From NCBI GenBank assembly GCA_902769815.1, contig CACXQO010000002.1, positions 1 to 61,980 on the forward strand: a stretch of 61,980 bases of DNA. The letters run 5' to 3'. The position numbers and the translations under genes were made by a program. Origin of the DNA: an uncultured Bacteroidia bacterium (GTDB lineage: Bacteria > Bacteroidota > Bacteroidia > Bacteroidales > F082). The first letter of the stretch is position 1. Every line of letters begins with the position of its first letter. Positions 14,751 to 60,326 of this stretch are shown piece by piece. The notes under the pieces were generated by a model. That model was not told where the DNA came from. It searched no databases and saw only the letters and a list, made by a program, of their open reading frames with translations.

Positions 14751-15107
14751 CTATGCTCTCCTTATTCTGCGCATAGCATCCTCAAGTTTTATCTCTATTC
14801 TTGTAAGCTCTCCGAGCCTTTGTTTCATCTCCTGAACTACAGTTTCTGACAACTTACCATTTTTAATACAGATATTAGCGTAGTGAGCCAATTGATTTAT
14901 ATTATTACCTGTCTTCTGCATTTCATAGATTTGCTTTTTATACACTTGTAGAAACTCAACTGCATTGATGGTGGCTCTCTCGCCGCCAAACAACTTGGCA
15001 CGGATGTATTCAGAAACATTCATACCGGAACTGGCGACCATTTTTTCAAGTTGGTCGTATTCTTTCTGTGTCAATCGAATTTCTTTTCTTCTTACCTTAT
15101 TATTCAT
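14751..15107 (-). CDS. mobC: MobC-type (ribbon-helix-helix) mobilization accessory protein
   Basis: N-terminal RKEIRLTQKEYDQLEKMVASSGMNVSEYIRAKLFG and later NNINQLAHYAN, typical of the Bacteroidales MobA/MobC-like relaxosome protein. No relaxase gene follows. Confidence 0.7.
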   Translation of the reverse strand: MNNKVRRKEIRLTQKEYDQLEKMVASSGMNVSEYIRAKLFGGERATINAVEFLQVYKKQIYEMQKTGNNINQLAHYANICIKNGKLSETVVQEMKQRLGELTRIEIKLEDAMRRIRRA

Positions 15108-17074: not shown

Positions 17075-18559
17075 TTATGGTTTTTGAGGAATAATGATAT
17101 TTGGGTTTTCTAAAATTCTTTGCTTTCTCTTGATTGCAGCTTCGCGATAGAGGTTAGCCACAGGACTTTCCGTGTTTTCAAGGAGCTTTTCTACCTGATT
17201 GAAGCACCAAAGTGCACAAGAGTCATTCCTGTCGCATCCCCGTCGTCCGCGTGCCATGAAATCGTTGCCGAGTTGATAAAGTAAAACATAATCGCTTTCA
17301 TTCAATCTGAAGGCTTGCATTAATAGATTATGGGCTTTTTTGTTATCGGGTTGAATGCCGCAATAAGAGCGCATCACTGCCCAAATTGGCTCAAAAAACA
17401 TAGTGTCGCGATAGTCAGAATTGTCAAAATAGAGTCGGCTCATGAGGAATGTGGCTTGGTAATCGTTTTTTGAAACCAAGGTATCAAGCATACGGAGACC
17501 TTCTGTAGCGGTTGTTTCATCTAATAGTAACCCCATTGCTTTGTCGTATGTGTATTCTTCTTCAACAATGGTTTCTGGCTTTTCATGTGTGCCGAAAAAA
17601 CCAATAACGCCGCCAATAACAAGGATTGAGGTAACGGCAATGATTATTGGCAAAACAAATCTCTTTTGTTTGGTGGTGAAACGTTTCTTTTGAGCCGCCT
17701 CTTTGATTTGTCGGGCCGAAGGTCGCTTTTCTGGGTCACTCTGAAGGCAGGCGCGAATAAGGTTCTTTACACTTGAAGGTACTTCTTTTAGTTCAGGCAT
17801 AGATACCTTCCCTTCTGATTGCGCTTTGCCCCCCTTTTCACCAAAAGGAACAATGCCAGTTAGTATTTCGCATAGTGTGGCACCAAAAGCCCAAATGTCG
17901 CTTTCTGGTATAGGTTTAGCATTTGGGGCAAAACACTCAGGAGCCATATAAGCTAATCTTCTGCTGGTTTTATCATCATAACAACCTTTATTCCCCATCA
18001 ATGGTTGACAACCGATGCCAAAGTCTGTAATGATAAAGTCGCCATTGTTGTCAATAAGAATATTGGTAGGTTTGATGTTCTGATGAACTATTTGAGGCTT
18101 ATTGGTGTGCAGTCTGTCGAGTCCAGAAGCCACATCGGAAATAAATTTCCATAATATGGCCTTAGACATCGTCTTGCCTATGTATTTCTCCGCTGACCCA
18201 GCTTCACAATATGGGAATACAAGATATGGGATGTTTTCGAAAATAGAAAAGCCAATAGGCTGTAACAAATTGACATGATGACAATCATGCATTATTCTAT
18301 AGTTGTCACGAAAACTCTGTTCACTTTCAATGTCAAGTGTTTTATAAGGATGATAGATTTTAATAACTACTTGAAGCCCTGATGACTCGTCTATGACATG
18401 ATTTCTATCCCCGTATTGGGAAAAATAATTGTCAATAGTATTCACATCAACGGCCAACCATACATCAGAAAAATCGCCTGCTGTATTCAAAGGCCGCAAC
18501 AATCTATAATGACCGTCAAACAAAGCCTCACCATTAGCAAATTCTTCGATATTTGTCAT
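17075..18559 (-). CDS. Hanks-type Ser/Thr protein kinase-like protein (HRD replaced by HQN), with one TM helix and a C-terminal helical-repeat domain
   Basis: VVIKIY (VAIK-like), IVHQNIKPTNILID (catalytic loop), ITDFGIG (DFG), YMAPE (APE), TM helix FVLPIIIAVTSILVIGGVIGFF. Confidence 0.8.
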   Translation of the reverse strand: MTNIEEFANGEALFDGHYRLLRPLNTAGDFSDVWLAVDVNTIDNYFSQYGDRNHVIDESSGLQVVIKIYHPYKTLDIESEQSFRDNYRIMHDCHHVNLLQPIGFSIFENIPYLVFPYCEAGSAEKYIGKTMSKAILWKFISDVASGLDRLHTNKPQIVHQNIKPTNILIDNNGDFIITDFGIGCQPLMGNKGCYDDKTSRRLAYMAPECFAPNAKPIPESDIWAFGATLCEILTGIVPFGEKGGKAQSEGKVSMPELKEVPSSVKNLIRACLQSDPEKRPSARQIKEAAQKKRFTTKQKRFVLPIIIAVTSILVIGGVIGFFGTHEKPETIVEEEYTYDKAMGLLLDETTATEGLRMLDTLVSKNDYQATFLMSRLYFDNSDYRDTMFFEPIWAVMRSYCGIQPDNKKAHNLLMQAFRLNESDYVLLYQLGNDFMARGRRGCDRNDSCALWCFNQVEKLLENTESPVANLYREAAIKRKQRILENPNIIIPQKP

Positions 18560-19602: not shown

Positions 19603-21480
19603 TTACTCCTCCATATTCCTAAGTTTCACAACAATTGGCATAGCGATACATGACTTATTGCAAATTCGTTGCTGCATCAGTTTGTCAAAAGCCATCTCGT
19701 TGGCATGTAAATAGTTTTTCTTATCCTTAAATTCGATGTCAATATACAATCCGCGTTCCAATCCTGTTTTACCCCCTATTCCCTCAACGTTTATCTTTAT
19801 CATAATGCGCTTAAACTCTTCCTTGCCAAATACATTCATAATCTCCTTACGCAAAAATGCGTCTATATCTTTCTTGGTATACAGTCTGTCATTAGTAAGA
19901 GCAAAATAACGCAGCAACTCAGAACGTTCATCGGGCGTAGCCTTATCACTTTTTTGGGTATATAATCTGTCATTAGTAAGGGTAGAATAACGCAGCAACT
20001 CAGAACGTTTATCGGGCGTAGCTTTATCGCTACCTCCTGAGGCAGGAACTAACACGCTCAATTTCTGTTCAATTGATGGCAACTTTTTATTTTCCATGAG
20101 TTCATCAACTTGTGGAGTGTTGCCGATTGCTCCTTGTGTGACAAGATAAGTCACTTTTGTTAATGTCGAAGATACACCATTTTTTATGTTCTTCATAACA
20201 TAAGTGCCACTATCGAACTTGAAAGTCTTATTCGGCACTTTAACTTCGCTGTTGTTGCCAATGCGATTGATGGTCTCACGCAAGCGTTTCAAGGTTTCAC
20301 CATCCTTAATGTCGTTATATTCAATAAAAGCGTAATAGTCATCAATAAAATGGTTGTATAGATTACGCACATCGCGGTATAAATCGCCATTATTGTAACG
20401 AGCAGCGTCAAAGTCGCGGACGATAATTTCGTCTGATGATGCGCCAAAACCTTGCTTTTGCGAGGCATTGCTGGTTTCAAGAATACGAAGAAAGAAGGAG
20501 TCGTCCTGTTTCTGTAGCTTGGCAATGGGCGACGATTGGCTAAGCGTGAGGGTACACACATCGACATTGACAACGGGAAAAGCATTAAGACAGATTGTAC
20601 AATTGTCCTGAACCGTGCAACCTTGCGGGAAATCAATTTTGAGCCATAATGTATTGGGCGAGAATCTATCCAACTCATTGTCTTCAAGCCACTGTCTGAA
20701 TTCACGAGGGTAAGCCTTGGGCTTGAAGATATCACGGTCTTTGGTCTTATCGGTGATGCATACCAATACTCCCTCCTTCATGTTGAGCAAACTGTCTTTC
20801 CAACTTTCGATAAAAGAGAAAAACTGCCCAGAGGCTTGCTGAGCATCAAATGGTTCTGCCATATTGATGTTTTCCATCTCGTTCATGGTGGCAAAATCAA
20901 GATTCCGATTGCCGATGCCTAAAGAAATGCGTTCTGGACTAATTCCTCTTGTTCCTTTAATGAACAGTGTCAATCCTTCAAGACACTTCACTTCTGTTTC
21001 TGTTGTAATGCCGACCCAAATGCGGTTAGGCTCACAGGCTAAAACAGACAACACCTCTGTGTCAAACTTCATCGTGGAGTGCGTCATCATAGACAAAGAC
21101 GAATGAGGCAAAGCCATGGTCTCAAACAAAGGAATGTAGTTAAGGGCTTGTTTGCGCAACGGGGTTTTGTAAGAAAAGCTGGAACCACTGCCTATTTTGA
21201 CAATTTCCGAGTTTTTGTTGGGCTTAAACGATGGCAAAAGCAGTGTTATCGCTGGAATAGGCTCCAATTGTTGCCATGGGATGAAATCGGTGCAATAGCG
21301 GTCTACAATCTGTCGGTCGATGCTGCCAATACGATCGTTTATTTTCTGTGTCTCGTTTAAAAGAGCTACCAGCATCATTTTTACGACTGGATCCATCTGT
21401 TGTAAGTCAATCTCTTCAACCGATAGCTGTTTCAATTGCTCAACAGCGTTTTTTAGCCTTTTTTCTAAATCAATATCCAT
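19603..21480 (-). CDS. tssF: T6SS baseplate protein TssF
   Basis: 625 aa. The N-terminal pattern DPVVKMMLVALLNETQKINDRIGSIDRQIVDRYCTDFIPWQQLEPIPAITLL fits the TssF N-terminus. Lies adjacent to tssE and tssK. Confidence 0.7.
   Translation of the reverse strand: MDIDLEKRLKNAVEQLKQLSVEEIDLQQMDPVVKMMLVALLNETQKINDRIGSIDRQIVDRYCTDFIPWQQLEPIPAITLLLPSFKPNKNSEIVKIGSGSSFSYKTPLRKQALNYIPLFETMALPHSSLSMMTHSTMKFDTEVLSVLACEPNRIWVGITTETEVKCLEGLTLFIKGTRGISPERISLGIGNRNLDFATMNEMENINMAEPFDAQQASGQFFSFIESWKDSLLNMKEGVLVCITDKTKDRDIFKPKAYPREFRQWLEDNELDRFSPNTLWLKIDFPQGCTVQDNCTICLNAFPVVNVDVCTLTLSQSSPIAKLQKQDDSFFLRILETSNASQKQGFGASSDEIIVRDFDAARYNNGDLYRDVRNLYNHFIDDYYAFIEYNDIKDGETLKRLRETINRIGNNSEVKVPNKTFKFDSGTYVMKNIKNGVSSTLTKVTYLVTQGAIGNTPQVDELMENKKLPSIEQKLSVLVPASGGSDKATPDKRSELLRYSTLTNDRLYTQKSDKATPDERSELLRYFALTNDRLYTKKDIDAFLRKEIMNVFGKEEFKRIMIKINVEGIGGKTGLERGLYIDIEFKDKKNYLHANEMAFDKLMQQRICNKSCIAMPIVVKLRNMEE
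19876..20037 (-). repeat. 81-bp in-frame tandem duplication (2 copies) inside tssF
   Basis: ggtatacagtctgtcattagtaag... (19876) matches ggtatataatctgtcattagtaag... (19957). Encodes SDKATPDKRSELLRYSTLTNDRLYTQK / SDKATPDERSELLRYFALTNDRLYTKK. Confidence 0.9.
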
Positions 21481-21518
21481 ACAAGTATTGTCTTTCTTGT
21501 TTTGATGGAACAGGGGGG

Positions 21519-22016
21519 TTAAATCGAACGTTTTATCGTAGGCTCCACGAAGAATACCACTTCTTTATTGTAAGGTTCCTCACAAATACCACTGTCGATG
21601 TCTCCTGTTACAAAAATAGAGACCAAATGCTTTGACTGAACCTTTTTGGTGTGTTGTTGTTTGATACCCGCAGGAATGAGTTTAACCGATACATTGACAT
21701 TTTTGAGTTGTGGAGCGTAAATGGACAAATTCCGTTTGATGCTCTCTTGACATTCATTTTTGGTGATTTCGCGATGTGCTCTTTCGGCCAAAGTGCTGGT
21801 TTGACCGTTATTGAAAGTATTGTATTGGATATTGACATACTCGTAATTCCAATACTCAAAACCAAACTCTGGATCGGCAGAGCAACTACCACGTGGGGTA
21901 TAAGCAATCAATTCAATTAGATTGTTGAGCATAGTCCTCAGCGATTTCAAATCGCGTTTCGGTTGGATGCTCAATAGATTGTCGTCAAAGTCTATCGGTG
22001 TGCTGATATAATTCAT
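21519..22016 (-). CDS. tssE: T6SS baseplate wedge protein TssE (GPW/gp25-like)
   Basis: 165 aa. LRTMLNNLIELIAYTPRGSCSADPEFGFEYWNYEY resembles the gp25 signature (NL..L..T..G.R...P.FG). Confidence 0.7.
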   Translation of the reverse strand: MNYISTPIDFDDNLLSIQPKRDLKSLRTMLNNLIELIAYTPRGSCSADPEFGFEYWNYEYVNIQYNTFNNGQTSTLAERAHREITKNECQESIKRNLSIYAPQLKNVNVSVKLIPAGIKQQHTKKVQSKHLVSIFVTGDIDSGICEEPYNKEVVFFVEPTIKRSI

Positions 22017-22022
22017 CGCATA

Positions 22023-23255
22023 TTAGATTATTATACCCTTCCAATTCTCATAGTCCTTACGCAGAGTCAGTGTATAGGTCTTGACCTCGCTACTCACACC
22101 GTTGGCAACAGCTTTTAATTTGATTTGTACGGTCATATCTGGCTCCGACACTCTTTTCGCATTGAACTTGCTTTCAATGGAGATTTTGTCGCCTACAAGT
22201 TTCTTTGTCGGATCACTCCCATCCGTTGAATAATATACAACAGCTTCTGGGATAGTATTGATAACAGAAACAGTAATGGTGCGTTTGCTACATCTTTGGT
22301 TTAGCTGGTCGGCTGGAATACATGGAGCAGCGATTTTTTCCTCTTTGACCGGCTCTTGATTCTCCTCCATCAGTCCAATCTTTTCCTTAATGGAGAAACA
22401 AATTTCCAAACCTTCCTTGATTTTGCGGTAAGCGTTCTTGAAGTCGTAGGGCGAAAGAGCGTAGTTTCTGAAAGTATTGGCATCGGATAGGGTTAACCTA
22501 TCATCAAGGTCGCAGGCTGTAGTGAAGGCTGCCACAAGCTTCTGGATCTGGGCAGTCAGTGTTATCGGGGTCATCAACTCCCGACCCTTATCGGTGTCTA
22601 TCAGGATTTGTACCAAATTGGGCCAGAATACTCGTATGACATCCCTTGTGTTCGACGGAAGTTGTCTCCTCACCAAGGTCTCTACCTCTGATAGAGTTTG
22701 CAAAAAGCGTTCATACAATTCTTGGCACTTGAAATGAGAGGCTACAAAAAGGCAAGGAGGCACAAAGTCTACATCATCAACGTGCCAACCGCCAATTTCA
22801 GTATCCACAAGCCGGGCAATGGGAACGACATTGTCTGTAATGGGACTGTTGGGTGACACAAGGTCGAAATGGTAGCAAGGCTCTTCAAAGCCGTCAATAG
22901 TCTCTACCCAGTGTTCAGGATCCATCCCGATGGTAAGCAGCAATTCTTTTCCAATCGCATTTTCAGGCAGTTTCACACTCGTTGAGAAATGACAGGAATA
23001 CTGTGTGTCAAAATTGATGTCAATTAAGTTTCCACCTTTGGTGAGAGCGAGGCAACATAGTGATTTAACCTCTATGTTATCCTTGATGATATCAACAGAG
23101 ATGCGGAACGGTTGATGGCAGGGGAGCAGACCAAAGCGTCCAACCGATGCCAGAATCAAAGCGTTTTTTACCCATTCGGCAATAGCCATATCTGAAGCTT
23201 TCATAACCTCATCGGTCAGCCTCATCCCTTTTTTCCAACTAATTCTTCTTTGCAT
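22023..23255 (-). CDS. tssK: T6SS baseplate protein TssK-like, with a C-terminal Ig/chitobiase-C-like module
   Basis: N-terminal RISWKKGMRLTDEVMKASD fits the TssK start (W..GM.L.P.H.Q..D). C-terminal ITVSVINTIPEAVVYYSTDGSDPT. Confidence 0.6.
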   Translation of the reverse strand: MQRRISWKKGMRLTDEVMKASDMAIAEWVKNALILASVGRFGLLPCHQPFRISVDIIKDNIEVKSLCCLALTKGGNLIDINFDTQYSCHFSTSVKLPENAIGKELLLTIGMDPEHWVETIDGFEEPCYHFDLVSPNSPITDNVVPIARLVDTEIGGWHVDDVDFVPPCLFVASHFKCQELYERFLQTLSEVETLVRRQLPSNTRDVIRVFWPNLVQILIDTDKGRELMTPITLTAQIQKLVAAFTTACDLDDRLTLSDANTFRNYALSPYDFKNAYRKIKEGLEICFSIKEKIGLMEENQEPVKEEKIAAPCIPADQLNQRCSKRTITVSVINTIPEAVVYYSTDGSDPTKKLVGDKISIESKFNAKRVSEPDMTVQIKLKAVANGVSSEVKTYTLTLRKDYENWKGIII

Positions 23256-23261
23256 GATGTT

Positions 23262-24140
23262 TTATAGATTCGTATTATAATTCAAATAATAATTTTTTTC
23301 CCCATCCGCAAGGTATATAGGATTATTTGTGCTGATGTCGAATCGTAAAATGTCGTCAATTGCCATGAAATAATCCTGAATGAAACACCGATAAGTTTCC
23401 ACTTCATCAACAAAATGAAGAAAATCCTTTTCCTTGTTGTTTTCTGGCCAAAAATGGATATCATAGATTGTTGATTGGGAATAATACTGGTTACCTACAT
23501 AGAGAGTATCCAAATGGCCGCCCACGCAGTTGTCGTATTTCGGATCTTGGTCAACAAACTCAATCGATTCGTTATGTTTTTTAATAGTTATCCCTTCTTG
23601 TGTAAATACCTTGCGCAACATCAAGGTAAGCAGGGTTTTATTGCCTCTGATGTACTTACATGAAGGAAGAAAAGGGATTGTCTGCCTAACGAATCGATTC
23701 TGAAGTTGCTCATTAGGAATCTCATCGCCAAGAATGTCTATCAATGCCTTGTTGATTTCGACGTAAGCGTTGATTTTTTTCCTGACATCAAGCCGGAGAC
23801 AAAGAAGCATCAAATCGACAGGCTCAAAGAAACGGCGAGCTTGTTTCTTCTCTCGTTCCTGAGCATCGTATTTTTCCTCAAACTTTTCCTTTTCTTCCTG
23901 CTTGGACAGGTTGTCGAATCGGTCTATAGGATGGAACATAAATTCCGGGAGAGTGTCGTAAATACCAGACCGTCCTAATGTGAGTTGCAGCGTTCCATCA
24001 TGCATCTCCTCAATGCCAATCAAGTCATTATAAGCATTACGCTTGTGTAATCCTCTGAACTGCACTTTGCAAGTGCCTTTCGGAAAGTACTCAAGCAGCA
24101 ACTCGGCATTAATATCGTCTGGTATGTTTTTCGGTATCAT
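23262..24140 (-). CDS. Putative T6SS baseplate protein TssG
   Basis: 292 aa. LQLTLGRSGIYDTLPEFMFHPI resembles the TssG GL.G..G.LP motif. Size and position next to tssK/E/F fit. Confidence 0.45.
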   Translation of the reverse strand: MIPKNIPDDINAELLLEYFPKGTCKVQFRGLHKRNAYNDLIGIEEMHDGTLQLTLGRSGIYDTLPEFMFHPIDRFDNLSKQEEKEKFEEKYDAQEREKKQARRFFEPVDLMLLCLRLDVRKKINAYVEINKALIDILGDEIPNEQLQNRFVRQTIPFLPSCKYIRGNKTLLTLMLRKVFTQEGITIKKHNESIEFVDQDPKYDNCVGGHLDTLYVGNQYYSQSTIYDIHFWPENNKEKDFLHFVDEVETYRCFIQDYFMAIDDILRFDISTNNPIYLADGEKNYYLNYNTNL

Positions 24141-24149: not shown

Positions 24150-25373
24150 TCATAAGTACTGTTGGACATCGCCATCAAGTTCCACATAAAACTCACCTTG
24201 CTCTGTGCTGACATGTACCACATCAAATGGCGGTATACCAATTTGTTGCAATGAAAGTTCTTGATAAGGAAAGTACTCGTCTATATTTTCGAAAAACGAC
24301 TTGTGGAACAGTGTTCGATAGCTGAGTTTTCGCAGTTCAGCATCGGAGCTGATGAAAGCATCAAGTTTCGATTCAGGCAACATCACCTCGTATACCTTTT
24401 CAGGTCGGTCAGAGGTAATCTTGTCAACGAACTTGTTGTTACACATATTGATTTCGACCGATTTGACTTTAAGCAAGCATTTCAGTCCAGCAAGAACATC
24501 TTTTACTGACATAGTAGTTGACAGCTGTGGAGCGTTTATGACGGGTTCCCAACGCTCATGTGCAGGACAATTCTTCTTCCATGAAGCAAAACGAAAAATG
24601 TTGGTTGTGTTGGACATACCATCATAATGAAGCATCTTACCTTCAAGCGTTTGGAATTGCGTTTTTTCATCCACATGAATGACTTTCATGGCTTCTTGCA
24701 CCTGGATGGCTCCAATTATGGAAGAACTGATAGGTGTGGTAGCCACACGACCTGCCGAACTTTGACTGCGCATTACGTCAGCACAACCCGTGCGCAACAT
24801 GATTTGATTGAATTCCTCTCGCGAAAGGCCACATTCATAGCAACTGACACCTGGGGCATACACACGGGCTACACCCGTCAAGTTTTCAATACTGCCATCA
24901 ATCCAGGTCTTGCCTGCCCTCATGCACAAACGATTAAGTTGGTAACGTGCTATACGGCTATCAAGACAGCCTATGACCACATCAACTGAGCGATACAGGC
25001 CAAATCCCACCTCAGAGAAAAGATTGCCCACAATGGGTGTCACCTTGATTTGCGGGTTGATTTCCATTGCCCGCTTGGCAACGACGTCTGCTTTATAGGA
25101 ATGGTTGTACGCATCCTCTTCCCTGAACAGCACTGAGCGTGTGAGGTTTGAAATCTCTATTTGATCAAAATCAACCACAAAAATGTGTCCCACACCAAAT
25201 AAAGCCAAGTTTTTAACCACCTCGTTACCGAGTGCACCTGCACCAGCCACCAGAACCCGAGCGTTTTTCACTTTATCTTTCTTGAACCAAGAAAGCAGAG
25301 TAAATACACCCTCACCCCATTCGTATGCTCTTTGTTTTTCCATCAAGTTTTTTTCAAAATCAACATTCAACAT
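24150..25373 (-). CDS. E1-like ubiquitin-activating/adenylyltransferase (ThiF/MoeB/HesA family) with a C-terminal extension of about 170 aa
   Basis: VLVAGAGALGNEVVKNLALFGVGHIFVVDFDQIEISNLTRSVLF (Rossmann/ATP loop) and PGVSCYECG (Cys pair). Likely start at 25373 (MLNVDF) or 25343 (MEKQ). Confidence 0.85.
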   Translation of the reverse strand: MLNVDFEKNLMEKQRAYEWGEGVFTLLSWFKKDKVKNARVLVAGAGALGNEVVKNLALFGVGHIFVVDFDQIEISNLTRSVLFREEDAYNHSYKADVVAKRAMEINPQIKVTPIVGNLFSEVGFGLYRSVDVVIGCLDSRIARYQLNRLCMRAGKTWIDGSIENLTGVARVYAPGVSCYECGLSREEFNQIMLRTGCADVMRSQSSAGRVATTPISSSIIGAIQVQEAMKVIHVDEKTQFQTLEGKMLHYDGMSNTTNIFRFASWKKNCPAHERWEPVINAPQLSTTMSVKDVLAGLKCLLKVKSVEINMCNNKFVDKITSDRPEKVYEVMLPESKLDAFISSDAELRKLSYRTLFHKSFFENIDEYFPYQELSLQQIGIPPFDVVHVSTEQGEFYVELDGDVQQYL

Positions 25374-27777
25374 ATTGGAAAATAGTATCACCGATGGTAA
25401 TAGTATCGCCGTTGGAGAGCGGCACGGGCTTGTTGGTAGGCAATTCAGCGCGTGAATTGAATATGGTTTTCGTAGCCAATGGTTTAAGCATAGCTTGCGA
25501 TAAGGAGTGATCCACATAGAGCTGAGCTTGTTCTTTGGCCACCTTATTGCTCTTTTCCCATGTCATCTGAATCTCGCAACGTTCCGTCATGCCAATGGTG
25601 ACTATGTTGCCGCCCCCCGTAGCATTCATCCACTTGTGGATGGGAATGCGTTGTCCTTCTTTCACGCCGTTCTTGATGACCAGGAAGTATTTTTCAGCCA
25701 ACATTCTGACTGTGACCAAAGAGGCTCCCAAACCACCGCCATAAATGATGAAGTCAAGCAGCCTATTGAGCCACTCCCAACGTGGACTTGCTTTGCTTCG
25801 GCTTGATAGATAAAGAATGACGAATCCGATGACAGCCGACGCAATACCACCTAAGAGAGCACTTTTGACAGGGATACTCGACTTGATGGAAAGGCTAAGC
25901 GAAATGCAGATTGAGAACAGCATATAGGCGGGCAGTGAGCAGTACCACTGGATGGCATGTTCAGACACACTTGACTGCAACCAACAGAAGATGGCACCAC
26001 CCAATGCGAAGGAGGCCATACCGATGATTCCTGACAACAATGACAAGCCTAATACCTTCATTAACGATTTGCTGTCAGTTTTACGCACCCCATCGGTATA
26101 GCGGAACACTATCGACATGAAGAACCCAAGCAGCAAACCAATAGCGAAGAAGGAAGCCACCTTGGCCACGCAATCGTTGAAGATACTGTTTTGTGCTTCG
26201 CTAAGGCATTCATCAACAATGCCGCGTGCCAATCCCATAAAGACACGACCTCTACCGATAAGCTCATACACCAACCAGCTCACCAATCCAGCTACAATGC
26301 CTGCCATCGTTTGGTAACTGTCTCGCAACGTTCCTTTACTGAACAATTGTTTCCAATGTACATGATCCTGAAAACCGTCCTTGCAGTTTTGTCCGTATTC
26401 CGAGCAATGGTAGTTGTTTTGCTGCCAACACTCAACATGCATGATATGCTTGCACCGAGTCACTACCTTTTGTCCAGGAAGGATTTCCTTCCTACAGAAG
26501 TGGCAAACACGATGCGTCACGTTCTCTTCCTGCACATAGCGTTTGTAATACTTTGCCGAGAAAAGCAACGACTTAATCAAAGGGATAAGCCCTTTAATAA
26601 TGAACAAGTAACAAACGATGGTGAGAAGGGTAATCAGGAGTGCCATCAACAACTTTATCGTCCAATCAACAACATTGGGCTCGCGCTTGGGCCAAGGATC
26701 TTCCTCAGCTCCGATGGAATAAATACACTCTCCTTTGTATAAACCATCCCAAACGGCCTTATAGTTTACTCTGTTTCCCCTATAGCAGTTGTTTTCCGAA
26801 ACCCTATACGTGTAAGTGAAGTCCGCCATAGCGTTTCTGGCAGCCTGCTCCAAGCCCTCTTTCACATCTGCCATATCATTGGCAGGCAGATACTTACCTT
26901 TTCTTTCCATGATGACTGTTCCATCTTCGCGCCGAGGTTCGGTGATATTCTGTAATGTACGCGAGACCCTTTCATCTTCTCCATTACCCGTATGATAGAA
27001 GGCATACACCTGCGGAACCACTATGGAATCGTTATTCTGGTATTCGGTGACCTGAATAAAATTAATAACCTCCTCAACTTCAGGTTTCATGCTACCATCA
27101 GCGATGAGGAATAGCAAGTTCTTTCCGGGATGGTTGGCCGCTCGTACGGAAATAATTGTGTTTTGCTCGTACCCAGGCTCCTTATTGACATACTGGAGCA
27201 AATCCGAATTGGTATTGGTAAACTCAAACTCAGCCAGTTTTGCATACACGGCACCATAGAAATTCTTCGTCTGCGTACCTTGCTCAAATCGAGCGTCAAA
27301 GTCGGAGAAATTAGCCTTGGTGACCATCTCGCTCTTTGAAACCTGTTCACCATAGAATGAAAGGTAAACACAACTGTCGTGGGCACTTTCAACCAACTCG
27401 CCAATAACTTGACGTATCTGTCTCTTGCCGTCTTCGGGAATGTTGAGGTCAACCAATATGGAAATGGTATAGTCTGAAGGAATACGCTGGCCCGAAGTAA
27501 GCATTCGAATTGTTCGGCACTCGTTGGAAATCGTATCGCCGTCTTCAATGACAAGGAGATGCCGATTCATATCCTCCACGTCCAGTCCGAGCTCTTTTCT
27601 CTCGCCGTTGTCGATCTTCAGAAACAGGGTGAGGCTGTCATTCCCAATTCCATAGTCATATTGCTTATCAATGAATTGGATTCCATCCACAGTTTGGGCA
27701 CCAAGCGGCATTGCCCATACCATTAAAACCAAAAGTGCCAATAGTTTCGTGTAAGTTATCTTTTTCTTCTTGTCCAT
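25360..27777 (-). CDS. Polytopic membrane protein: signal peptide, periplasmic domain, TM, RING-H2-like zinc finger, six TM helices and a C-terminal FHA-like domain
   Basis: CHFCRKEILPGQKVVTRCKHIMHVECWQQNNYHCSEYGQNC = C-x2-C-x13-C-x-H-x2-H-x2-C-x7-C-x6-C. The C-terminal ...VTIGMTERCEIQM...LSNGDTITIGDTIFQYVEC has FHA topology. Confidence 0.7.
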   Translation of the reverse strand: MDKKKKITYTKLLALLVLMVWAMPLGAQTVDGIQFIDKQYDYGIGNDSLTLFLKIDNGERKELGLDVEDMNRHLLVIEDGDTISNECRTIRMLTSGQRIPSDYTISILVDLNIPEDGKRQIRQVIGELVESAHDSCVYLSFYGEQVSKSEMVTKANFSDFDARFEQGTQTKNFYGAVYAKLAEFEFTNTNSDLLQYVNKEPGYEQNTIISVRAANHPGKNLLFLIADGSMKPEVEEVINFIQVTEYQNNDSIVVPQVYAFYHTGNGEDERVSRTLQNITEPRREDGTVIMERKGKYLPANDMADVKEGLEQAARNAMADFTYTYRVSENNCYRGNRVNYKAVWDGLYKGECIYSIGAEEDPWPKREPNVVDWTIKLLMALLITLLTIVCYLFIIKGLIPLIKSLLFSAKYYKRYVQEENVTHRVCHFCRKEILPGQKVVTRCKHIMHVECWQQNNYHCSEYGQNCKDGFQDHVHWKQLFSKGTLRDSYQTMAGIVAGLVSWLVYELIGRGRVFMGLARGIVDECLSEAQNSIFNDCVAKVASFFAIGLLLGFFMSIVFRYTDGVRKTDSKSLMKVLGLSLLSGIIGMASFALGGAIFCWLQSSVSEHAIQWYCSLPAYMLFSICISLSLSIKSSIPVKSALLGGIASAVIGFVILYLSSRSKASPRWEWLNRLLDFIIYGGGLGASLVTVRMLAEKYFLVIKNGVKEGQRIPIHKWMNATGGGNIVTIGMTERCEIQMTWEKSNKVAKEQAQLYVDHSLSQAMLKPLATKTIFNSRAELPTNKPVPLSNGDTITIGDTIFQYVEC

Positions 27778-29381
27778 ATCTTCAAGTCTTCTAATTGTTG
27801 TTCACCATAATAGTTTTCGTCCGTGCAAAGGTTGCCATCAATGATGGGAATAGAGGTAAGAAGCCCATCGGAGGTGGAATAGACCAGCACGAACTTGATG
27901 TCGCCCAACTGTTGGGCAATGGCTTTCTTGACCGATGGAATGCTACAGTGCGTCACCATGACGAAAGCACCTATCGGATTGCAATCGACCACGTTCTCAT
28001 CATCGGTGACTTTGACAACGACATACTCCTTTACGTCTTTTCGTTCAATGGGATAGCCATAAACCGTTGAAACAAGTTCTCCGCTATGTTCGACAGCTAA
28101 CAGACCCATGTCGATGATAGCTCCATTGCTTAATTCAATACCATGGCAATTGTTACTACGCTGTTTTGCTCTTTCCAAACCGTTTCGATAATCCTCGGCG
28201 TTGAATGAATTGCGTTCCTGTTCCACCGCCCATTGATACCACTCTTCCAGCGAAAAGAGCTGTTTCATTTCAATGCGTGAGTTGATGGTACCGTCGTGTT
28301 TGAATGTAAACAATCCCATTTCTTGTTGGGGAGTAAGGATGTCGACCACAAGAGCCGTCAGGAAGTTAGGGTGCGATGGATGCTTCAGTAGGTTCTGCAC
28401 GCTACAGTCGTTGTTGCTGAAAAACACACCCAAGCCTGGATGCGAGTGTACCCAACAAGTCAAATCGTATTGTATATCAGTTTCCACTCGGAGTTTTTTC
28501 AGCTTCTCCCTTACATCCATCTTGATTTTTCCGCCAAAATTCAATTCATATTCCGTAAATACGGCATCGTTGCCCGGAAGCACAACGTGTTCCAAAGTGA
28601 CATAGTAATCGTTGGCTTTCTTGTCTTGAACCCAGCGACCCAACACCATGCAGCCGTCTTCCTTAGGATTTTCAGGATTACGGAGGTCATTAGCATACAT
28701 ATTATATATTTCTTTGATGCATGCTGTCTTGATGTAAACTTGTTTCACCGCCGAGTCATCGACAAAGCTATTACAGTCAATCTCCATATAATTGTCATTG
28801 CCAATTACATCGTCAATGTTTTGTTTACGCTGTATAGCAGTAGTCTTGTGGCGAATAACGATATTAGAATCATCAATATCTGTTTCTTTCCCTATTGTCT
28901 GTACCAGAGTTGGCTTTACTCTTTTCTTGCGTTTGCCGATGAAGACGAGGATAATGATAATAACTAACAAACCGACAACGCCAAGTCCTGCCAGCAAAAG
29001 AAGTCGTTTTATTTCCGCCTCATGCTTTCTTTGTTCTATCTCATTTCTGACCATAGTCTTCATCTCTATGCAGCAAAGCTCATTAGTTAGCCAATTATCT
29101 CCCTCCTTTACTATCTTGATTTCATCGCAGGAAGGGAAAATTTGCAAGAGAAAATTTACCACAAATGTATCTAGCTTTTTTTCTTTATCGGTATCAGATA
29201 GTGTATCGATATCAGGCAGTTGACCCACTGTGTCTAGGTATTTTTCAAAATTGGCGATGATAATTTCCTTATTCACCGATCCGTCTTCGTTTTTCTGTAG
29301 GTCAATTTGAGCCCATACACCACCCCAAAAGCCAAGGAATGTCAATAGGGCTATAATGGTTTTAATATGCTTTTTCATCAT
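27756..29381 (-). CDS. Membrane-anchored JAB/MPN (JAMM) metallopeptidase
   Basis: Signal peptide MMKKHIKTIIALLTFLGFWGGVWAQ. TM helix LLLLAGLGVVGLLVIIIILVFIG followed by KRKKR. JAMM motif WVHSHPGLGVFFSNNDCS (HxH-x7-S-xx-D). Confidence 0.8.
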   Translation of the reverse strand: MMKKHIKTIIALLTFLGFWGGVWAQIDLQKNEDGSVNKEIIIANFEKYLDTVGQLPDIDTLSDTDKEKKLDTFVVNFLLQIFPSCDEIKIVKEGDNWLTNELCCIEMKTMVRNEIEQRKHEAEIKRLLLLAGLGVVGLLVIIIILVFIGKRKKRVKPTLVQTIGKETDIDDSNIVIRHKTTAIQRKQNIDDVIGNDNYMEIDCNSFVDDSAVKQVYIKTACIKEIYNMYANDLRNPENPKEDGCMVLGRWVQDKKANDYYVTLEHVVLPGNDAVFTEYELNFGGKIKMDVREKLKKLRVETDIQYDLTCWVHSHPGLGVFFSNNDCSVQNLLKHPSHPNFLTALVVDILTPQQEMGLFTFKHDGTINSRIEMKQLFSLEEWYQWAVEQERNSFNAEDYRNGLERAKQRSNNCHGIELSNGAIIDMGLLAVEHSGELVSTVYGYPIERKDVKEYVVVKVTDDENVVDCNPIGAFVMVTHCSIPSVKKAIAQQLGDIKFVLVYSTSDGLLTSIPIIDGNLCTDENYYGEQQLEDLKIWTRRKR

Positions 29382-29384
29382 CTG

Positions 29385-30569
29385 TCAAATTGAGATTCTT
29401 TTATTACCTTTTTCTTTCATGGTCTTATCAACACTTTTCTGTAGGGCATTCTTGCCTTTTTGCTCCACGGAATTCATGGTTTGGTTGGTTTTGCTTTTAA
29501 TGGCTGACTGCGCTTTTCTTTTGGCTATACCTTCTGCTTGTTTTGCAGCATCTTGCTGCATCTGCATCATGCTGCGCTGGGTACGGCGGTTGCGTATGGT
29601 CTGCATCACTTGGCCACCCACAAAGAGTAACACCGCCAACAAAGCACCACCGATAAGCATCCACATGTTACGTTTCTTCTGTTCTTCTTCCTTAGCCTTG
29701 ACAGCCTGAGCCTCACGCTCCTGTTCCTTCTTTATCGAATCCTGAATGGCCTGTTGTTGCTGTTGAATCTTTTTATCGTATTCAGCTTTCATCGCCTTTT
29801 CTTTGACATCATATTGGGCGAGAATGTCATCTATCATCTTAACGATGTTGTCGTCCTTTACTTCGCTTCGCTGTTTTCTCAGTGCCCTCACCTCCTCTGT
29901 CAGATACTCCTCAAAAGGATATTCCTTCTGGCGTGACAACAACTCAACAATGTTATTGGCACGCTTGATGGCAATGGCATCAGTTTCCGAAAGGCTCTCG
30001 ACTTCTTCTTCAATAATCTCCACTGATGTTTGGGTTACAGTAGGCTGAACAGCCGTCGTCTTTGTTGCAGGAATTGGGTCTATCTTAACTTTCAACTCAC
30101 CACAACTGGCAAAAACCTTATAATGCAATTTCCTTTCATAGTGTGCCAAAAAAACGGGTATGGACAATATAGTACTCTCGTCATCTATCAGCTCAAACGA
30201 GATGGATGGCTGCTGCTGCACAAGATAATAGCCGTAGCTAGTTGACTTTCTCCGAAGGCTGGCTGGCACGGTGAAAGCCTTGATATCATCACCCTTAAAC
30301 ACGGTACCGTCGCTATAGACACCAATATGATCAAAAAACACCACGGCCACCTCTTCCAATTTGTTGTATTTGCGGGCATAAGTCGGTCCCAAGATCTTGC
30401 TTGCGCTACTAAAGTTAAGCACAGCTACACCGTCCTCTATGTTCACATCGTATGTGATGGTAACACGGTCGCCAGAAGGAGATTCAAGCGTTTCGGTGAC
30501 CTTGTTGGCCATTAATGTGCTGCATAGCATTAGTGCTATCCACAAACAAATGAATTTACCACTTTTCAT
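29385..30569 (-). CDS. Exported protein with a coiled-coil and a C-terminal TM anchor. Function unknown (membrane-complex candidate).
   Basis: Signal peptide MKSGKFICLWIALMLCSTLMA. Lys/Glu/Gln-rich coiled coil. TM helix MWMLIGGALLAVLLFVGGQVM followed by a basic tail. 4-nt overlap with the upstream gene. Confidence 0.6.
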   Translation of the reverse strand: MKSGKFICLWIALMLCSTLMANKVTETLESPSGDRVTITYDVNIEDGVAVLNFSSASKILGPTYARKYNKLEEVAVVFFDHIGVYSDGTVFKGDDIKAFTVPASLRRKSTSYGYYLVQQQPSISFELIDDESTILSIPVFLAHYERKLHYKVFASCGELKVKIDPIPATKTTAVQPTVTQTSVEIIEEEVESLSETDAIAIKRANNIVELLSRQKEYPFEEYLTEEVRALRKQRSEVKDDNIVKMIDDILAQYDVKEKAMKAEYDKKIQQQQQAIQDSIKKEQEREAQAVKAKEEEQKKRNMWMLIGGALLAVLLFVGGQVMQTIRNRRTQRSMMQMQQDAAKQAEGIAKRKAQSAIKSKTNQTMNSVEQKGKNALQKSVDKTMKEKGNKRISI

Positions 30570-31627
30570 TTCTGTGAATTGTAGTATTTCGTGATTCTGT
30601 CGTAGTAATCAATAATTCCGTCCTTATATTTGTTCTGTTTTTTCCATTCAGCTGCATGGCTCCTGCATGTTTTGTCAGTGCAACATTTATACATGGCTTT
30701 AACTTGCAGCATTTCTTCCTTGGTGAGTTCCTTTTTGGGATAGACTTTTTCCTGATACAAGTCATCAAATGCATCATAGATTTCCTCCAATGTCAGCTTG
30801 CAATATTTACAGTAATGGTTGAAAGTGTGTTCGTCAGGATTACCACAGTCGGCTTCTTTAAACTCGATGTCGTCGAGTTGTTGCTTCAATTCATTGTATT
30901 TTCTGTATTTGAAGCTTTTTGCTGGCCATTGTTGCAATTTCAAATTGATAGCAAGGCGGAGGTCACTCACCTCATTCTTATAAGGCTGTTCCCTTTCCTC
31001 CAACGAGGGTTTGTGCTTCGGGTTGTTGCAGAATGTCAGGTGTGATATGACCTCAGCAATGGAGTCGCACGACTTCTTTATGGCAGGATAGCCCTCATCA
31101 GGTGTAAGTTCAACGGAGATGATAAGTTTTTCAACATGCTTCTCCATCAATGCCGCTTTCTTGGAGCATTTCTTTATAGCCATATAGAAAGGCAGCTTGA
31201 TTTCGAGGGTCTCATCTTCTGTCATTTGCAGATGACTGATTCGATAGTTGGAGCTATTGGGAGCCAGTCCCACCACATCTCTGCCCAACTGCTCACAGTA
31301 GTCGGTGTAACGCGGTTTCTTCACGGGATAGTTCCAATCATAGACAACGCGGGGATTCTTAAGACCACGCAGTTGCTTTTCATCAAAAGAACGTCCAAAC
31401 AGAAAGAGCATATTGTTGGAGACCTCATTCGGATTTATCACTTCCACCATGATGTCCACCCTTCCTTGGGCATCCGGCTCACCCATAGTGACATTGATAT
31501 TGACATACCCTAATTCAAGGCTCTTTTGATTGTCGTCCTCATTGAGCACAATTTTGTATTCGCCATCAGCAAAGACAGAAAGTGCAGTAAGTAGGGTTAG
31601 CAGTATGGTAAAAATGGTTTTCCTCAT
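30566..31627 (-). CDS. Secreted protein of unknown function with a Cys-rich C-terminus
   Basis: Signal peptide MRKTIFTILLTLLTALSVFA. C-terminal CGNPDEHTFNHYCKYCK...YKCCTDKTCRSH. 4-nt overlaps with both neighbours. Confidence 0.6.
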   Translation of the reverse strand: MRKTIFTILLTLLTALSVFADGEYKIVLNEDDNQKSLELGYVNINVTMGEPDAQGRVDIMVEVINPNEVSNNMLFLFGRSFDEKQLRGLKNPRVVYDWNYPVKKPRYTDYCEQLGRDVVGLAPNSSNYRISHLQMTEDETLEIKLPFYMAIKKCSKKAALMEKHVEKLIISVELTPDEGYPAIKKSCDSIAEVISHLTFCNNPKHKPSLEEREQPYKNEVSDLRLAINLKLQQWPAKSFKYRKYNELKQQLDDIEFKEADCGNPDEHTFNHYCKYCKLTLEEIYDAFDDLYQEKVYPKKELTKEEMLQVKAMYKCCTDKTCRSHAAEWKKQNKYKDGIIDYYDRITKYYNSQK

Positions 31628-32289
31628 ATTACAAGTTTTTTGGGCAGTGTCTTTTTGGGCTTGGACGTATCTTGCTGTTCAATGACAGGCTCTTGGGGAT
31701 GTGGCTTGGGTTTGTCGGCTTCGACCTGTGCAAAGTGTGTCCAGCCATTTGGTTCAGCTTCTTCGCGTACCCATTCCGCTACATTCTGGTCTTCAGGATA
31801 AGGATAGGTGTTGGCAGCGTGGTAGAGCTTGTACTTCAGGTAACGCTCCACACGCAGAATAAGGTCTTTCAAGGAGGCCATCACGCCCATCTCCTTGATG
31901 GTGAGGCAGACATGACCCTTGAAACTGCCTGAATAGCGGATGTTGGGATGCCATACATTGGTAAGGAAAGTAAATATAGGATTACCATCAGCCGACGGGT
32001 AGTTGTTGGGCAGCACTATGCTCATTTTATGCAAAGTACCGAATACTGGCTTACGTGGTATGGTGGAGCCTTCCACACCGATGATAGACTTGACGCGATA
32101 CCAGATTTCGTATTCGGTGGGAATACCCAAGCTGTTCTTCTTGCGGATGATATAAGAAATGGAAGGCTCGCGGGGATTCGCTTCCTTGCGCTTGGCGCAG
32201 AGGGTGTCGATATCCTTCCACTCAATCCAGAGGCGGGCGTTGCGCCCTGTTAGCTCTTTTTGGTTGAAGTTATTTATTATTTCATTCAT
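31624..32289 (-). CDS. E2-like ubiquitin-conjugating enzyme (UBC fold)
   Basis: LPNNYPSADGNPIFTFLTNVWHPNIRYSGSFKGHVCLTIKE: HPN motif with the catalytic Cys at canonical UBC spacing. Likely start MNEIINNF at 32289. Confidence 0.85.
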   Translation of the reverse strand: MNEIINNFNQKELTGRNARLWIEWKDIDTLCAKRKEANPREPSISYIIRKKNSLGIPTEYEIWYRVKSIIGVEGSTIPRKPVFGTLHKMSIVLPNNYPSADGNPIFTFLTNVWHPNIRYSGSFKGHVCLTIKEMGVMASLKDLILRVERYLKYKLYHAANTYPYPEDQNVAEWVREEAEPNGWTHFAQVEADKPKPHPQEPVIEQQDTSKPKKTLPKKLVI

Positions 32290-32309: not shown

Positions 32310-32636
32310 TCAACCCGCGATGGGAACCGAAACAAGGTGCAGGTGGTCGCCTGGACGGATGCCATAGTCCATGAGGCATTGCTCGCGACCGTTCTCATCC
32401 TCAAATTCCAGGATTTCCGACTCGCCACCTTCTTCCATCACCTGACCCAACAGATACTTCACGGGATTGCCGCCGCCATCTATCTTAGGCAGCTCAAATA
32501 CCTGCACAATGCTGTTGATTTGGTCGCGGATGGTCTTGTTGGGGTCGTTAACTTTCACTTCCACTTCCTCATACGAAGTGTTGTCGATAGTCAAATGAAT
32601 GATGAATTCCTCATCGAATACTTGTTCGTTTTCCAT
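32310..32636 (-). CDS. Ubiquitin-like beta-grasp protein (YukD/EsaB-like) ending in Gly
   Basis: 108 aa. ...CLMDYGIRPGDHLHLVSVPIAG-stop. The C-terminal Gly codon (GGT) was verified on the DNA immediately before the TGA. Confidence 0.65.
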   Translation of the reverse strand: MENEQVFDEEFIIHLTIDNTSYEEVEVKVNDPNKTIRDQINSIVQVFELPKIDGGGNPVKYLLGQVMEEGGESEILEFEDENGREQCLMDYGIRPGDHLHLVSVPIAG

Positions 32637-43387: not shown

Positions 43388-43460
43388 GATTCAAATATGT
43401 TTATGTTAATAACTATGGTATAGCAGTAGCGTTCAAACCACAGTCATGCTATGATATCTA

Positions 43461-47136: not shown

Positions 47137-47168
47137 AACTTGTATAGTTTAATTGTTAAACACTCATT

Positions 47169-58504: not shown

Positions 58505-58569
58505 GTCTTTGTCGTTTTTAATGAAATATGATGCAAAAGTAATACAATGAAATATTGCATTATAAATAA

Positions 58570-58625
58570 TCAACCTATTCAACATTTTTTCAACATTTTT
58601 TCAACTTATTGTTTAAAATTTCAAC
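58570..58625. promoter_or_regulatory. Five TCAAC repeats, three of them phased at 11 bp, upstream of the HTH gene
   Basis: TCAAC at 58570, 58579, 58590, 58601 and 58621 (ttcaacatttt ttcaacatttt ttcaactt). Confidence 0.4.
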
Positions 58626-60196: not shown

Positions 60197-60217
60197 AATG
60201 AAAATGTGTGTGTTAGT

Positions 60218-60246: not shown

Positions 60247-60326
60247 AGAAATGCAATATAGCATAATAATCTTATTATCCGATTTAAGAATTTATATGAT
60301 ATATAATTGAATATCAATAATATTAA

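Follow-up and report, generated by a model that had tools for sequence, protein, structure and literature searches.

Conjugation of ubiquitin-like proteins (Ubls) by bacterial E1 (activating) and E2 (conjugating) enzymes has been shown only recently, and the characterised systems all serve phage defence and work without a RING protein. Bacterial RING-type E3 ligases have so far only been predicted. Operons that combine Ubl, E1, E2, RING and JAB genes were reportedly predicted in bacteria by Burroughs, Iyer and Aravind in 2011, and the Pfam model Prok-RING_1 is said to derive from that work. The roles of other bacterial Ubl operon families "remain unknown" (PMC11601603). In the field of type VI secretion systems (T6SS), the membrane complex of the Bacteroidota was defined only in 2024, when TssN was described as the hub of the T6SS(iii) membrane complex TssNQOPR in Bacteroides fragilis GA3 (Bongiovanni et al. 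2024, PMC10781749). Here we describe a gene that brings these two subjects together. It lies at positions 25360-27777 (minus strand, ATG to stop) of a 61,980-nucleotide stretch of uncultured Bacteroidales DNA, the whole of which is referred to as the window, and encodes an inner-membrane protein of 805 amino acids (aa), read here as exported by Sec and as having seven TM helices, with the layout vWA-TM-RING-6TM-FHA (TM, transmembrane helix), called the RING-FHA protein below. With modest confidence, we read this protein as a RING E3 embedded in the membrane, with a second role as membrane dock for a divergent T6SS(iii).

The case for a ligase begins with a RING-H2-type finger at aa 421-470 (26368-26517, minus strand), which reads C425-HF-C428-x13-C442-K-H444-IM-H447-VE-C450-W451-x6-C458-SEYGQN-C465, with its eight ligands in C3H2C3 order. 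Set against the reference RING-H2 pattern C-x2-C-x9-39-C-x1-3-H-x2-3-H-x2-C-x4-48-C-x2-C, the finger agrees exactly in its first six ligands and in its loop lengths. A first-pass annotation made from the sequence had described this RING-H2 spacing with a deviating x6 last pair, and that is precisely what is present. The same annotation counted the Trp after the sixth ligand as part of the match; W451 does directly follow C450 and is invariant, but canonical RING-H2 fingers carry their Trp about four residues after ligand 6, so this is not the canonical position. Conservation was assessed in two alignments of the close clade (24 and 56 homologues, 53-96% identity) and in a family-wide alignment of 105 sequences, consisting of the window protein and 104 full-length representatives with identity down to 18%. 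The eight ligands and W451 are invariant in both close-clade alignments. Family-wide, the ligands are kept in 90-105 of the 105 sequences (86-100%), with C442, W451 and C458 present in all; a regular expression for the full finger motif matches 84 sequences, 73 of which have identical spacing. A chance cluster of Cys and His residues is ruled out by this conservation. The residue between C1 and C2 is aromatic or aliphatic, Pro follows C7 in 78 of the 105 sequences and Lys follows C8 in 46, at positions that we take to be of the RING-E2 contact type.

Profile and structure comparisons point in the same direction. Eight Pfam RING models match the window finger weakly over aa 421-465, the strongest being zf-RING_2 (PF13639), with the other seven scoring lower. 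Among relatives, Pfam models were scanned against a subset of 56 diverse sequences, with matches counted at E<0.01. Here zf-RING_2 matches 29 of the 56 (best E 1.2e-4) and Prok-RING_1 (PF14446) matches 15 (best E 7e-6). The latter model is also a precomputed annotation of homologue P0046, which scores 17.1 bits, compared with 11.7 bits (E 0.25) for the window protein and a cutoff of 29.1. A profile search of PDB sequences with the finger returned six weak matches, all of them RING-H2 E3s aligned on the ligands, including RCHY1/Pirh2, synoviolin/Hrd1 (6a3z) and ARK2C/RNF165. An AlphaFold2 model of the whole protein, built on 56 homologues (mean predicted local distance difference test, pLDDT, 77), places a small beta-rich module at aa 411-470 directly after TM1, and a separate model of aa 408-482 has a core pLDDT of about 80. 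In a Foldseek search with the finger model, RING-H2 E3 domains occupy the first 19 places among the PDB matches (TM-score 0.40-0.63, probability 0.69-1.0, E 0.02-0.17). The best are RNF38, RNF12, Ark2C/RNF165 and RNF13 (5zc4/5zbu), with RMR1 (7bvw) just below. PHD, LIM and C1 fingers were considered and rejected on the ligand order C3H2C3 and on the rank of those folds, which lie below the RING-H2 matches.

The predicted topology would bring the finger to the side of the membrane on which a conjugation cascade could reach it. The protein opens with a signal peptide (aa 1-27; 27697-27777, minus strand) composed of an MDKKKK n-region, a hydrophobic core with a hydropathy peak at aa 7-31, and an ending in GAQ followed by T. 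A27-Q28 is invariant in the 56 homologues, and exported proteins of the Bacteroidota typically have a Gln behind the cleavage site. It is followed by a mixed alpha/beta domain of the vWA fold (aa ~30-365; 26683-27690, minus strand), which Foldseek matches to ITIH1 (6fpy, E 2e-7), integrin I domains, VWF A1, B. thetaiotaomicron BatB (3ibs) and archaeal ArnB (8s05). Pfam VWA matches 11 of the 56 relatives, with a best E of 4.6e-12. The metal-ion-dependent adhesion site (MIDAS) motif DxSxS is not intact, being D110-L-N-I-P in the window protein, DLSIP in the clade consensus and D-L-T-L-P in a distant clade described below. A signal peptide followed by an extracytoplasmic, vWA-like domain of about 350 aa lacking a clear DxSxS had been proposed from the letters of the sequence, and the modelled vWA fold with its incomplete MIDAS bears this out. 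Since the signal peptide is cleavable, the vWA domain is expected to be periplasmic, and TM1 (aa ~369-394; 26596-26673, minus strand; hydropathy 2.9, AlphaFold2 helix 369-410) then returns the chain to the cytoplasm, where a Lys/Arg-rich linker follows.

Downstream of the finger, AlphaFold2 helices, hydropathy and the charge asymmetry of the loops together define a bundle of six TM helices (aa 481-694; 25696-26337, minus strand), the number that the first-pass annotation had counted. The modelled helices span residues 481-506, 527-561, 569-603, 611-628, 637-660 and 665-694; a further, short helix (511-524) is not membrane-spanning. Among the 50 PDB matches listed for the full model, none is a fold match to this bundle. 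In the close clade, the predicted cytoplasmic loops have on average 7.9 (linker, aa 395-424), 5.5, 2.0 and 6.3 Lys plus Arg residues, against 2.2, 0.1 and 1.1 for the predicted periplasmic loops. The totals are 21.7 versus 3.4 in the close clade and 16.7 versus 2.9 family-wide. These positive-inside charges agree with the earlier placement of finger and FHA domain on the cytoplasmic side. By this reading of the sequence, both likely face the cytoplasm, where the E1, the E2 and the JAB catalytic domain also lie. The signal peptide and the loop charges speak against a periplasmic RING, a reading that we reject. The best-conserved stretch of the protein is the glycine-rich TM7 (F676-x-IYGGGLGAS-x2-TVR; 25696-25800) together with the first strands of the FHA domain (IPIHKWMN; 25600-25690), not the finger. 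K715-W716 at the FHA junction is nearly invariant even at 18% identity.

The protein belongs to a large family. In a protein collection clustered at 90% identity, 626 full-length homologues were found, nearly all of about 800 aa; the few with a name, which belong to Muribaculaceae, Prevotella and Phocaeicola, appear as "FHA domain-containing protein" or as "hypothetical". A profile search that exhaustively covered 1.84 billion representatives returned 394 clusters at 50% identity (E<=1e-3), mostly of 750-840 aa and of the same architecture. The protein has no match in NCBIfam, PHROGs or PADLOC. A scan of one genome per species located the gene in 98 species-level genomes, nearly all labelled Bacteroidales (Prevotellaceae, Muribaculaceae, Bacteroidaceae, Alistipes, Barnesiella and Porphyromonadaceae), and cultured carriers include Bacteroides hominis Tbg-374, Xylanibacter muris and Palleniella intestinalis. 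Two loci on short contigs (L031 and L035, 9.5 and 13 kb) are labelled as Firmicutes metagenome-assembled genomes, a Lachnospiraceae bacterium and a Bacilli bacterium, labels that most likely reflect binning contamination and not true hosts. Clustering of 110 full-length representatives put the window protein in a small group; the largest group, a distant one, has 55 members.

To compare gene neighbourhoods we used the best 80 of the 98 loci, of which 53 had complete 10-kb flanks, and searched for neighbours by tblastn. Genes for a Ubl, an E2, a JAB protein and an E1 accompany the RING-FHA gene in 53 of these 53 full-flank loci. In the window, the Ubl gene (32310-32636, minus strand) encodes 108 aa ending in VPIAG before the stop; its identity comes from the translation, and a PDB sequence search returned no confirmation of a beta-grasp fold. 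The C-terminus is -IAG in 69 of 70 loci, and one locus has a short AG-GSKK extension. Because this C-terminus is free, most Ubl copies would need no processing, though the JAB gene is always present in the gut clade. The UBC-type E2 (31624-32289, minus strand) has an HPN...C active site and a likely start at M31 of an open reading frame that extends to 32379. It matches Pfam UQ_con (E 6e-6), and UBE2K, UBE2N and other E2s in the PDB align with it across the HPN and the catalytic Cys. The E1 is of the ThiF type (24150-25373, minus strand; Pfam ThiF E 8e-52), in an open reading frame that extends to 25517. The membrane-anchored JAB/JAMM peptidase (541 aa; 27756-29381, minus strand) carries a cytoplasmic HSHPG...S..D motif; Prok-JAB matches it at E 0.035, and Rpn11 and CSN5 align over the JAMM motif. 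Its layout consists of a signal peptide ending in VWA followed by Q, a periplasmic segment of about 100 aa, a TM helix at aa 128-146, a KRKKR stop-transfer sequence and the cytoplasmic catalytic domain.

Read directly from the sequence, the stop of the upstream JAB gene overlaps the RING-FHA start by 22 nt, and the likely E1 start, an ATG at 25373, overlaps the RING-FHA 3' end by 14 nt. On account of these overlaps the JAB, RING-FHA and E1 genes look translationally coupled. The candidate membrane E3 proposed in the first-pass annotation gains strength from this company: a Ubl (with the -IAG terminus in 69 of 70 loci), an HPN-Cys E2, a ThiF E1 and a JAB protein are encoded beside it at every full-flank locus. 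As far as sequence, structure prediction and synteny reach, the membrane E3 interpretation is supported.

The secretion part of the interpretation comes from the genes on the other side of the cassette. Downstream of the E1 gene lies a baseplate block (19603-24140, minus strand) that encodes a TssG-like protein of 292 aa, TssK, TssE (gp25) and a TssF-like protein of 625 aa, each present in 52 of 53 loci. TssK matches VasE (E 7e-4) and TIGR03353 (E 3e-5), and TssE matches gp25 (E 0.0099). Between the E2 and JAB genes lie two genes for exported proteins. One is of 353 aa (30566-31627, minus strand; 50/53 loci), with a signal peptide, an N-terminal hydrophobic segment and no assigned fold. The other is of 394 aa (29385-30569, minus strand; 51/53 loci), with a signal peptide, a coiled coil and a C-terminal TM helix at aa 304-322. 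A glucosaminidase gene (51/53 loci) and a Ser/Thr kinase gene (46/53) are also common neighbours. The cultured carrier strains have the same gene order as the window.

The association with baseplate genes extends well beyond this clade. From the 55-member distant group, whose proteins are about 18-24% identical to the window protein, four loci (L081-L084) were sampled, and all four have a cassette of ten genes in the order E1, TssG-like, TssK, TssE, TssF-like, Ubl, E2, two exported proteins and RING-FHA (for example, L082:1606-12403). The distant E1 and E2 are 47% and 42% identical to those of the window. The distant proteins of ~265 aa and ~565 aa are related to the window proteins of 292 aa and 625 aa, and TssE is again gp25. 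The distant Ubl is 105 aa long, ends in PFPG and has weak matches to Rad60-SLD, ubiquitin and YukD; the positional analogues of the 353-aa and 394-aa proteins are of 382 aa and 280 aa. In L082-L084, the three with annotation on either side, the cassette lies between unrelated housekeeping genes, as it does on the downstream side in L081. A PEGA-domain protein is encoded just upstream of the cassette in L082-L084. No JAB and no kinase gene was found within the recovered flanks of the four distant loci. What is kept in the distant loci defines the core of the module as E1, E2, Ubl, RING-FHA, the two exported partners and the four baseplate-type genes, and makes the JAB protein, the kinase and the physical linkage to the remaining T6SS features of the gut Bacteroidales clade.

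This core bears on whether the finger has a catalytic role at all. A purely structural protein would be a baseplate anchor whose finger and FHA domain are only interaction or stability modules, next to a cascade that ligates without an E3, as in Bil and type II CBASS (the antiphage signalling system based on cyclic oligonucleotides). Such a protein would fit the higher conservation of TM7 and the FHA junction relative to the finger, the atypical and poorly modelled last zinc site, and the standing of RING-FHA as the only polytopic membrane protein of the locus; Bil and CBASS Cap2 do ligate without a RING (PMC10557695). It fits less well with the family-wide retention of eight ligands in RING-H2 order and spacing, or with best matches that are exclusively catalytic RING-H2 E3s. 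Nor, if the finger had nothing to do with the cascade, would it be easy to explain why each of the loci examined, down to the minimal distant cassette, also has an E2 and a Ubl. We therefore consider a purely structural role unlikely.

The C-terminal domain of the RING-FHA protein (aa 697-805; 25363-25689, minus strand) is a beta-sandwich. FHA domains are 11-stranded beta-sandwiches, and Foldseek matches this one to the FHA domain of Bdellovibrio DgcB (6hc0/6hc1; target-normalised TM-score 0.77-0.80, root-mean-square deviation 2.2-2.9 A), as well as to CEP170, Rad53 FHA1, MDC1 and MEK1 (E 1e-5 to 1e-3). The Pfam FHA model PF00498 aligns with the window protein over its full length (1-67; E 8.8e-4), matches 26 of the 56 relatives (best E 1.4e-9) and is precomputed on many relatives. 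The FHA-like character of the last ~100 aa, suspected beforehand, is upheld by the fold matches and this near-threshold Pfam score. Yop-YscD_cpl, the model of the FHA-like cytoplasmic domain of YscD from type III secretion systems (T3SS), matches 8 of the 56 relatives (best E 5.3e-6). The phosphothreonine (pThr) pocket is degenerate. In the window protein, G729-M730 stands for Gly-Arg and A747-K-E-Q750 for Ser-x-x-His, with N774 kept; it had rightly been remarked that the canonical signature was not obvious. Among the 105 family sequences, 50 have K, 29 have R and 5 have M at position 730, 57 have A and 9 have S at position 747, and the canonical R..S..H triad occurs in 4. The best-conserved features are instead the TM7 motif IYGGGLGAS, K715-W716, W740, G796-x-T798 and E804. 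By analogy, the domain looks like the docking type found in T3SS YscD/PrgH or in EssC of type VII secretion systems (T7SS), not like a pThr reader.

An FHA fold and a kinase in one operon would also suit a phospho-switch, in which the FHA domain reads Thr phosphorylation by the kinase of the locus and gates both the RING and T6SS firing according to a signal that the vWA domain senses in the periplasm. In its favour, the FHA fold is real, and the eukaryotic FHA and RING ligases RNF8 and CHFR are phospho-directed. The operon encodes a bitopic, receptor-type Ser/Thr kinase (17075-18559, minus strand; Pkinase E 1.6e-37, kinase domain aa 50-287, TM aa 301-319). The TagE(PpkA)-TagH(Fha1) pathway is established for T6SS(i) (PMC13584744). 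The pocket residues speak against such a switch, with Met730 in place of the Arg, Ala747 in place of the Ser and the triad nearly absent from the family, and so does the distribution of the kinase, which is missing from some close loci and from all four distant ones. No phosphatase was matched among the operon proteins scanned against Pfam, and the YscD-type model that matches some relatives represents a class that is not known to bind phosphopeptides. A phospho-switch thus appears improbable, and the analogy with Fha1/PpkA-style phospho-gating that the first-pass annotation had drawn is not supported.

On the membrane E3 and dock reading, the predicted finger would bind two Zn ions and recruit the Ubl-charged E2 (E2~Ubl), acting as adaptor for the co-encoded ThiF E1, UBC-type E2 and 108-aa Ubl. 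In gut Bacteroidales, the membrane-tethered JAB protein would reverse the ligation. The RING-FHA protein would also dock the baseplate (TssK, TssE and the presumed TssF and TssG) at the membrane, a role suggested by its being the only multi-pass protein of the module, by the lack of a recognisable membrane-complex gene and by the constant adjacency of baseplate genes. As signature component of a Ubl and baseplate module and its only polytopic protein, it may have a structural docking role besides or instead of signalling. Ubl ligation would then take place at the membrane face of the baseplate. Its target may be a T6SS component or the membrane proteins themselves, with control of assembly, anchoring or turnover as the outcome, and the FHA fold may act as a pThr-independent or non-canonical docking module. 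The analysis establishes the architecture, the three folds, the conservation of the ligands, the synteny and, as likely, the topology; that the finger binds zinc, recruits the E2 and acts as a ligase is inferred, as are the substrate and any effect on secretion. More tentatively, and as a possibility that we hold to be somewhat doubtful, the cassette may define an unrecognised T6SS subtype in which the Ubl cascade is integral to the machine. There the RING-FHA protein would take the place of the TssJLM or TssNQOPR dock, and Ubl attachment, reversed by the JAB protein in gut Bacteroidales, would control assembly, anchoring or recycling.

Several observations weigh against the membrane E3 and dock reading. 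The last pair of the finger is C-x6-C (C458, C465), not C-x2-C, and the region of this pair has a pLDDT of <50 in the finger model. The window protein scores below every Pfam RING cutoff, reaching 16.8 bits with zf-RING_2 (E 0.0085) against a gathering cutoff of 27.3. The isolated finger gives weak Foldseek E-values (0.02-0.3), which a query of about 75 residues would lead one to expect, but the ranking is uniform. Instead of the E2-contacting Pro, members of the window clade have Ser, Ala or Val after C7 (Ser in the window protein). The FHA score of 20.1 bits is marginally under its cutoff of 20.7, which relatives do exceed. The 625-aa and 292-aa proteins have no Pfam, NCBIfam or PDB matches and are called TssF and TssG by position only. 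The RING-FHA protein is set apart from TssN by the published description of the latter, not by sequence, and remote T6SS(iii) homology is possible. Finally, the recovered flanks (<=10 kb) of the four distant loci contain no sheath, Hcp/tube or VgrG/spike genes, so that the link to a complete T6SS holds only for the gut Bacteroidales clade. As regards the deviating last pair, a longer insert between the final two ligands is described as characteristic of RINGs in prokaryotes (PMC11354881). On the points on which the first-pass annotation could have been overturned, the results run in its favour: the ligands are conserved, the finger models as a RING-type fold, the C-terminus models as an FHA fold and the finger is predicted to lie on the cytoplasmic side.

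The distant cassettes without nearby sheath and tube genes would also suit a Ubl defence or stress system of the Bil or Bub kind, in which the contractile genes are chance neighbours and the membrane RING targets invader proteins. Other characterised bacterial Ubl operons act in anti-phage immunity (PMC10557695, PMC11601596). The window island, moreover, appears to sit as a whole on an integrative mobile element. Genes at its ends (14751-15107, 54844-57081, 58226-58585 and 58700-60256) encode MobC/NikA at one end and DUF3854/DUF5906 (primase-like), excisionase-type HTH_17 and tyrosine-integrase-like proteins at the other, and near 14 kb, at the left boundary, GC content falls from ~0.51 to ~0.42. 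Yet RING-FHA, E2, Ubl, JAB and the two exported proteins match no PADLOC model, and the E1 matches only the CBASS E1-E2 models, over the shared adenylation domain; apart from this generic match, PADLOC gives no sign of a known defence system, a reading that we reject. TssK, TssE and the two presumed baseplate genes stand inside the conserved cassette in all clades, and the window cassette is part of one strand-continuous operon with ClpV, TssB/C, four Hcp, VgrG, PAAR-like and Tle1-like effector genes. We regard a defence role with chance contractile neighbours as very improbable.

The operon as a whole is an array on the minus strand that spans ~51.7 kb to 15.5 kb. In order of transcription it encodes ClpV, TssB, TssC, two Hcp, a NusG-like protein, a second TssC, two further Hcp and VgrG. 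Next come an fn3 protein with a tail for the type IX secretion system (T9SS), a coiled-coil protein, a DUF4280 (PAAR-like) protein, a 161-aa protein, a Tle1-like phospholipase and a DUF2931 protein. They are followed by the Ubl, E2, 353-aa, 394-aa, JAB, RING-FHA, E1, 292-aa, TssK, TssE and 625-aa proteins, and the array ends with a glucosaminidase-LysM enzyme, the Ser/Thr kinase and a WG-repeat protein. The sheath and tube genes match Pfam TssC (PF17541) and TssD (PF17642) strongly. Of the proteins that the operon encodes, only RING-FHA is a polytopic membrane protein. No T6SS membrane-complex model was matched by the operon proteins scanned against Pfam and NCBIfam, and no NCBIfam model of a T6SS protein by the RING-FHA protein and its three membrane-protein neighbours.

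Some features of the array stand apart from these questions. The two TssC paralogues (43891-45672 and 47590-48960) are of 593 and 456 aa, the longer with an N-terminal extension of ~170 aa. The four Hcp paralogues lie in 42980-43853 and 46738-47561, and a NusG/KOW-like gene (45648-46304) is embedded among the TssC and Hcp genes. The 745-aa fn3/Ig-repeat protein (38659-40896), between VgrG and the PAAR-like gene, carries a T9SS sorting domain (Por_Secre_tail), an odd signal on a gene in a type VI locus. The Ser/Thr kinase has an extracytoplasmic C-terminal region of ~175 aa without a domain match, in a receptor-kinase layout. A protein with Schlafen AlbA_2 and HATPase_c_4 domains is encoded at 53301-54512, between the T6SS operon and the mobile-element genes, and may be a defence-type gene.

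The link of a membrane RING/Ubl cascade to a T6SS appears to be undescribed. No connection of the T6SS to Ubl, ThiF, JAB or RING proteins, and nothing relevant on a "GA4" or on T6SS subtypes of Muribaculaceae or Prevotella, was found in the T6SS literature, a search that did not cover the 2011 prediction of RING operons, which may describe the architecture. The terms ubiquitin, ThiF, FHA and kinase are absent from a 2016 survey of GA1-3, the word "ubiquitin" serves in the T6SS(iii) membrane-complex paper solely to describe how the TssN cytoplasmic domain folds (PMC10781749), and a 2026 review of T6SS accessory factors mentions ubiquitin nowhere. If true, the reading as a T6SS subtype with an integral Ubl cascade would describe the first secretion nanomachine in bacteria to be run by an E1-E2-E3 cascade of its own and would give a bacterial RING E3 a physiological role. 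The family is widespread and joins the fields of bacterial ubiquitin and type VI secretion in a context that would surprise both, and the cultured carriers make the hypothesis directly testable.

Among the known systems that come closest are, on the ubiquitin side, the predicted Prok-RING_1 operons. In both, a bacterial transmembrane protein with a binuclear RING-type finger is encoded beside Ubl, E1, E2 and JAB genes, and the RING-FHA family is related to the Prok-RING_1 model, mostly at sub-threshold scores (window protein, 11.7 vs 29.1 bits). The eukaryotic PA-TM-RING proteins (RNF13, RMR1) and Hrd1/synoviolin have in common with it the layout of extracytoplasmic domain, TM helix and cytosolic RING-H2. 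This is a resemblance of fold and ligands at 12-24% identity, not family membership, and the RING-FHA protein is unlike these membrane E3s in the x6 spacing of its last pair, in the six further TM helices and FHA domain after the finger, and in its bacterial Ubl, E1 and E2. RNF8, CHFR and Dma1/2 also combine FHA and RING in one polypeptide. They are soluble, have the FHA domain before the RING and possess canonical pThr-binding residues, whereas in the RING-FHA protein the RING precedes the FHA domain, a six-TM bundle lies between them and the pThr pocket is degenerate.

Secretion systems offer a second set of comparisons. Like the PpkA/TagE-Fha1/TagH pathway of T6SS(i), the locus encodes an FHA-fold protein and a bitopic Ser/Thr kinase in a T6SS context. 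TagH, however, is a soluble FHA protein without RING or TM helices, whereas in the RING-FHA family the pThr residues are not conserved and the kinase falls outside the family-wide core. Membership of the TagH/Fha1 family is ruled out by the seven TM helices, the RING, the vWA domain and the degenerate pocket. In T3SS YscD/PrgH and T7SS EssC, as here, an FHA fold is fused to an inner-membrane secretion component, and their FHA-like domains are not known to carry canonical phosphopeptide-binding residues. Those proteins differ in membrane topology and machine and have no RING or vWA domain. TssN of the T6SS(iii) resembles the RING-FHA protein in being a polytopic inner-membrane protein whose gene lies beside tssK, with a cytoplasmic domain toward the baseplate and the involvement of a ubiquitin-like fold (PMC10781749). 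TssN has five TM helices and a built-in EccD/YukD-like domain in ~283 aa (PMC10781749); the RING-FHA protein, in contrast, has seven TM helices, combines RING, FHA and vWA domains, and is accompanied by a separate, conjugatable Ubl with its own E1 and E2.

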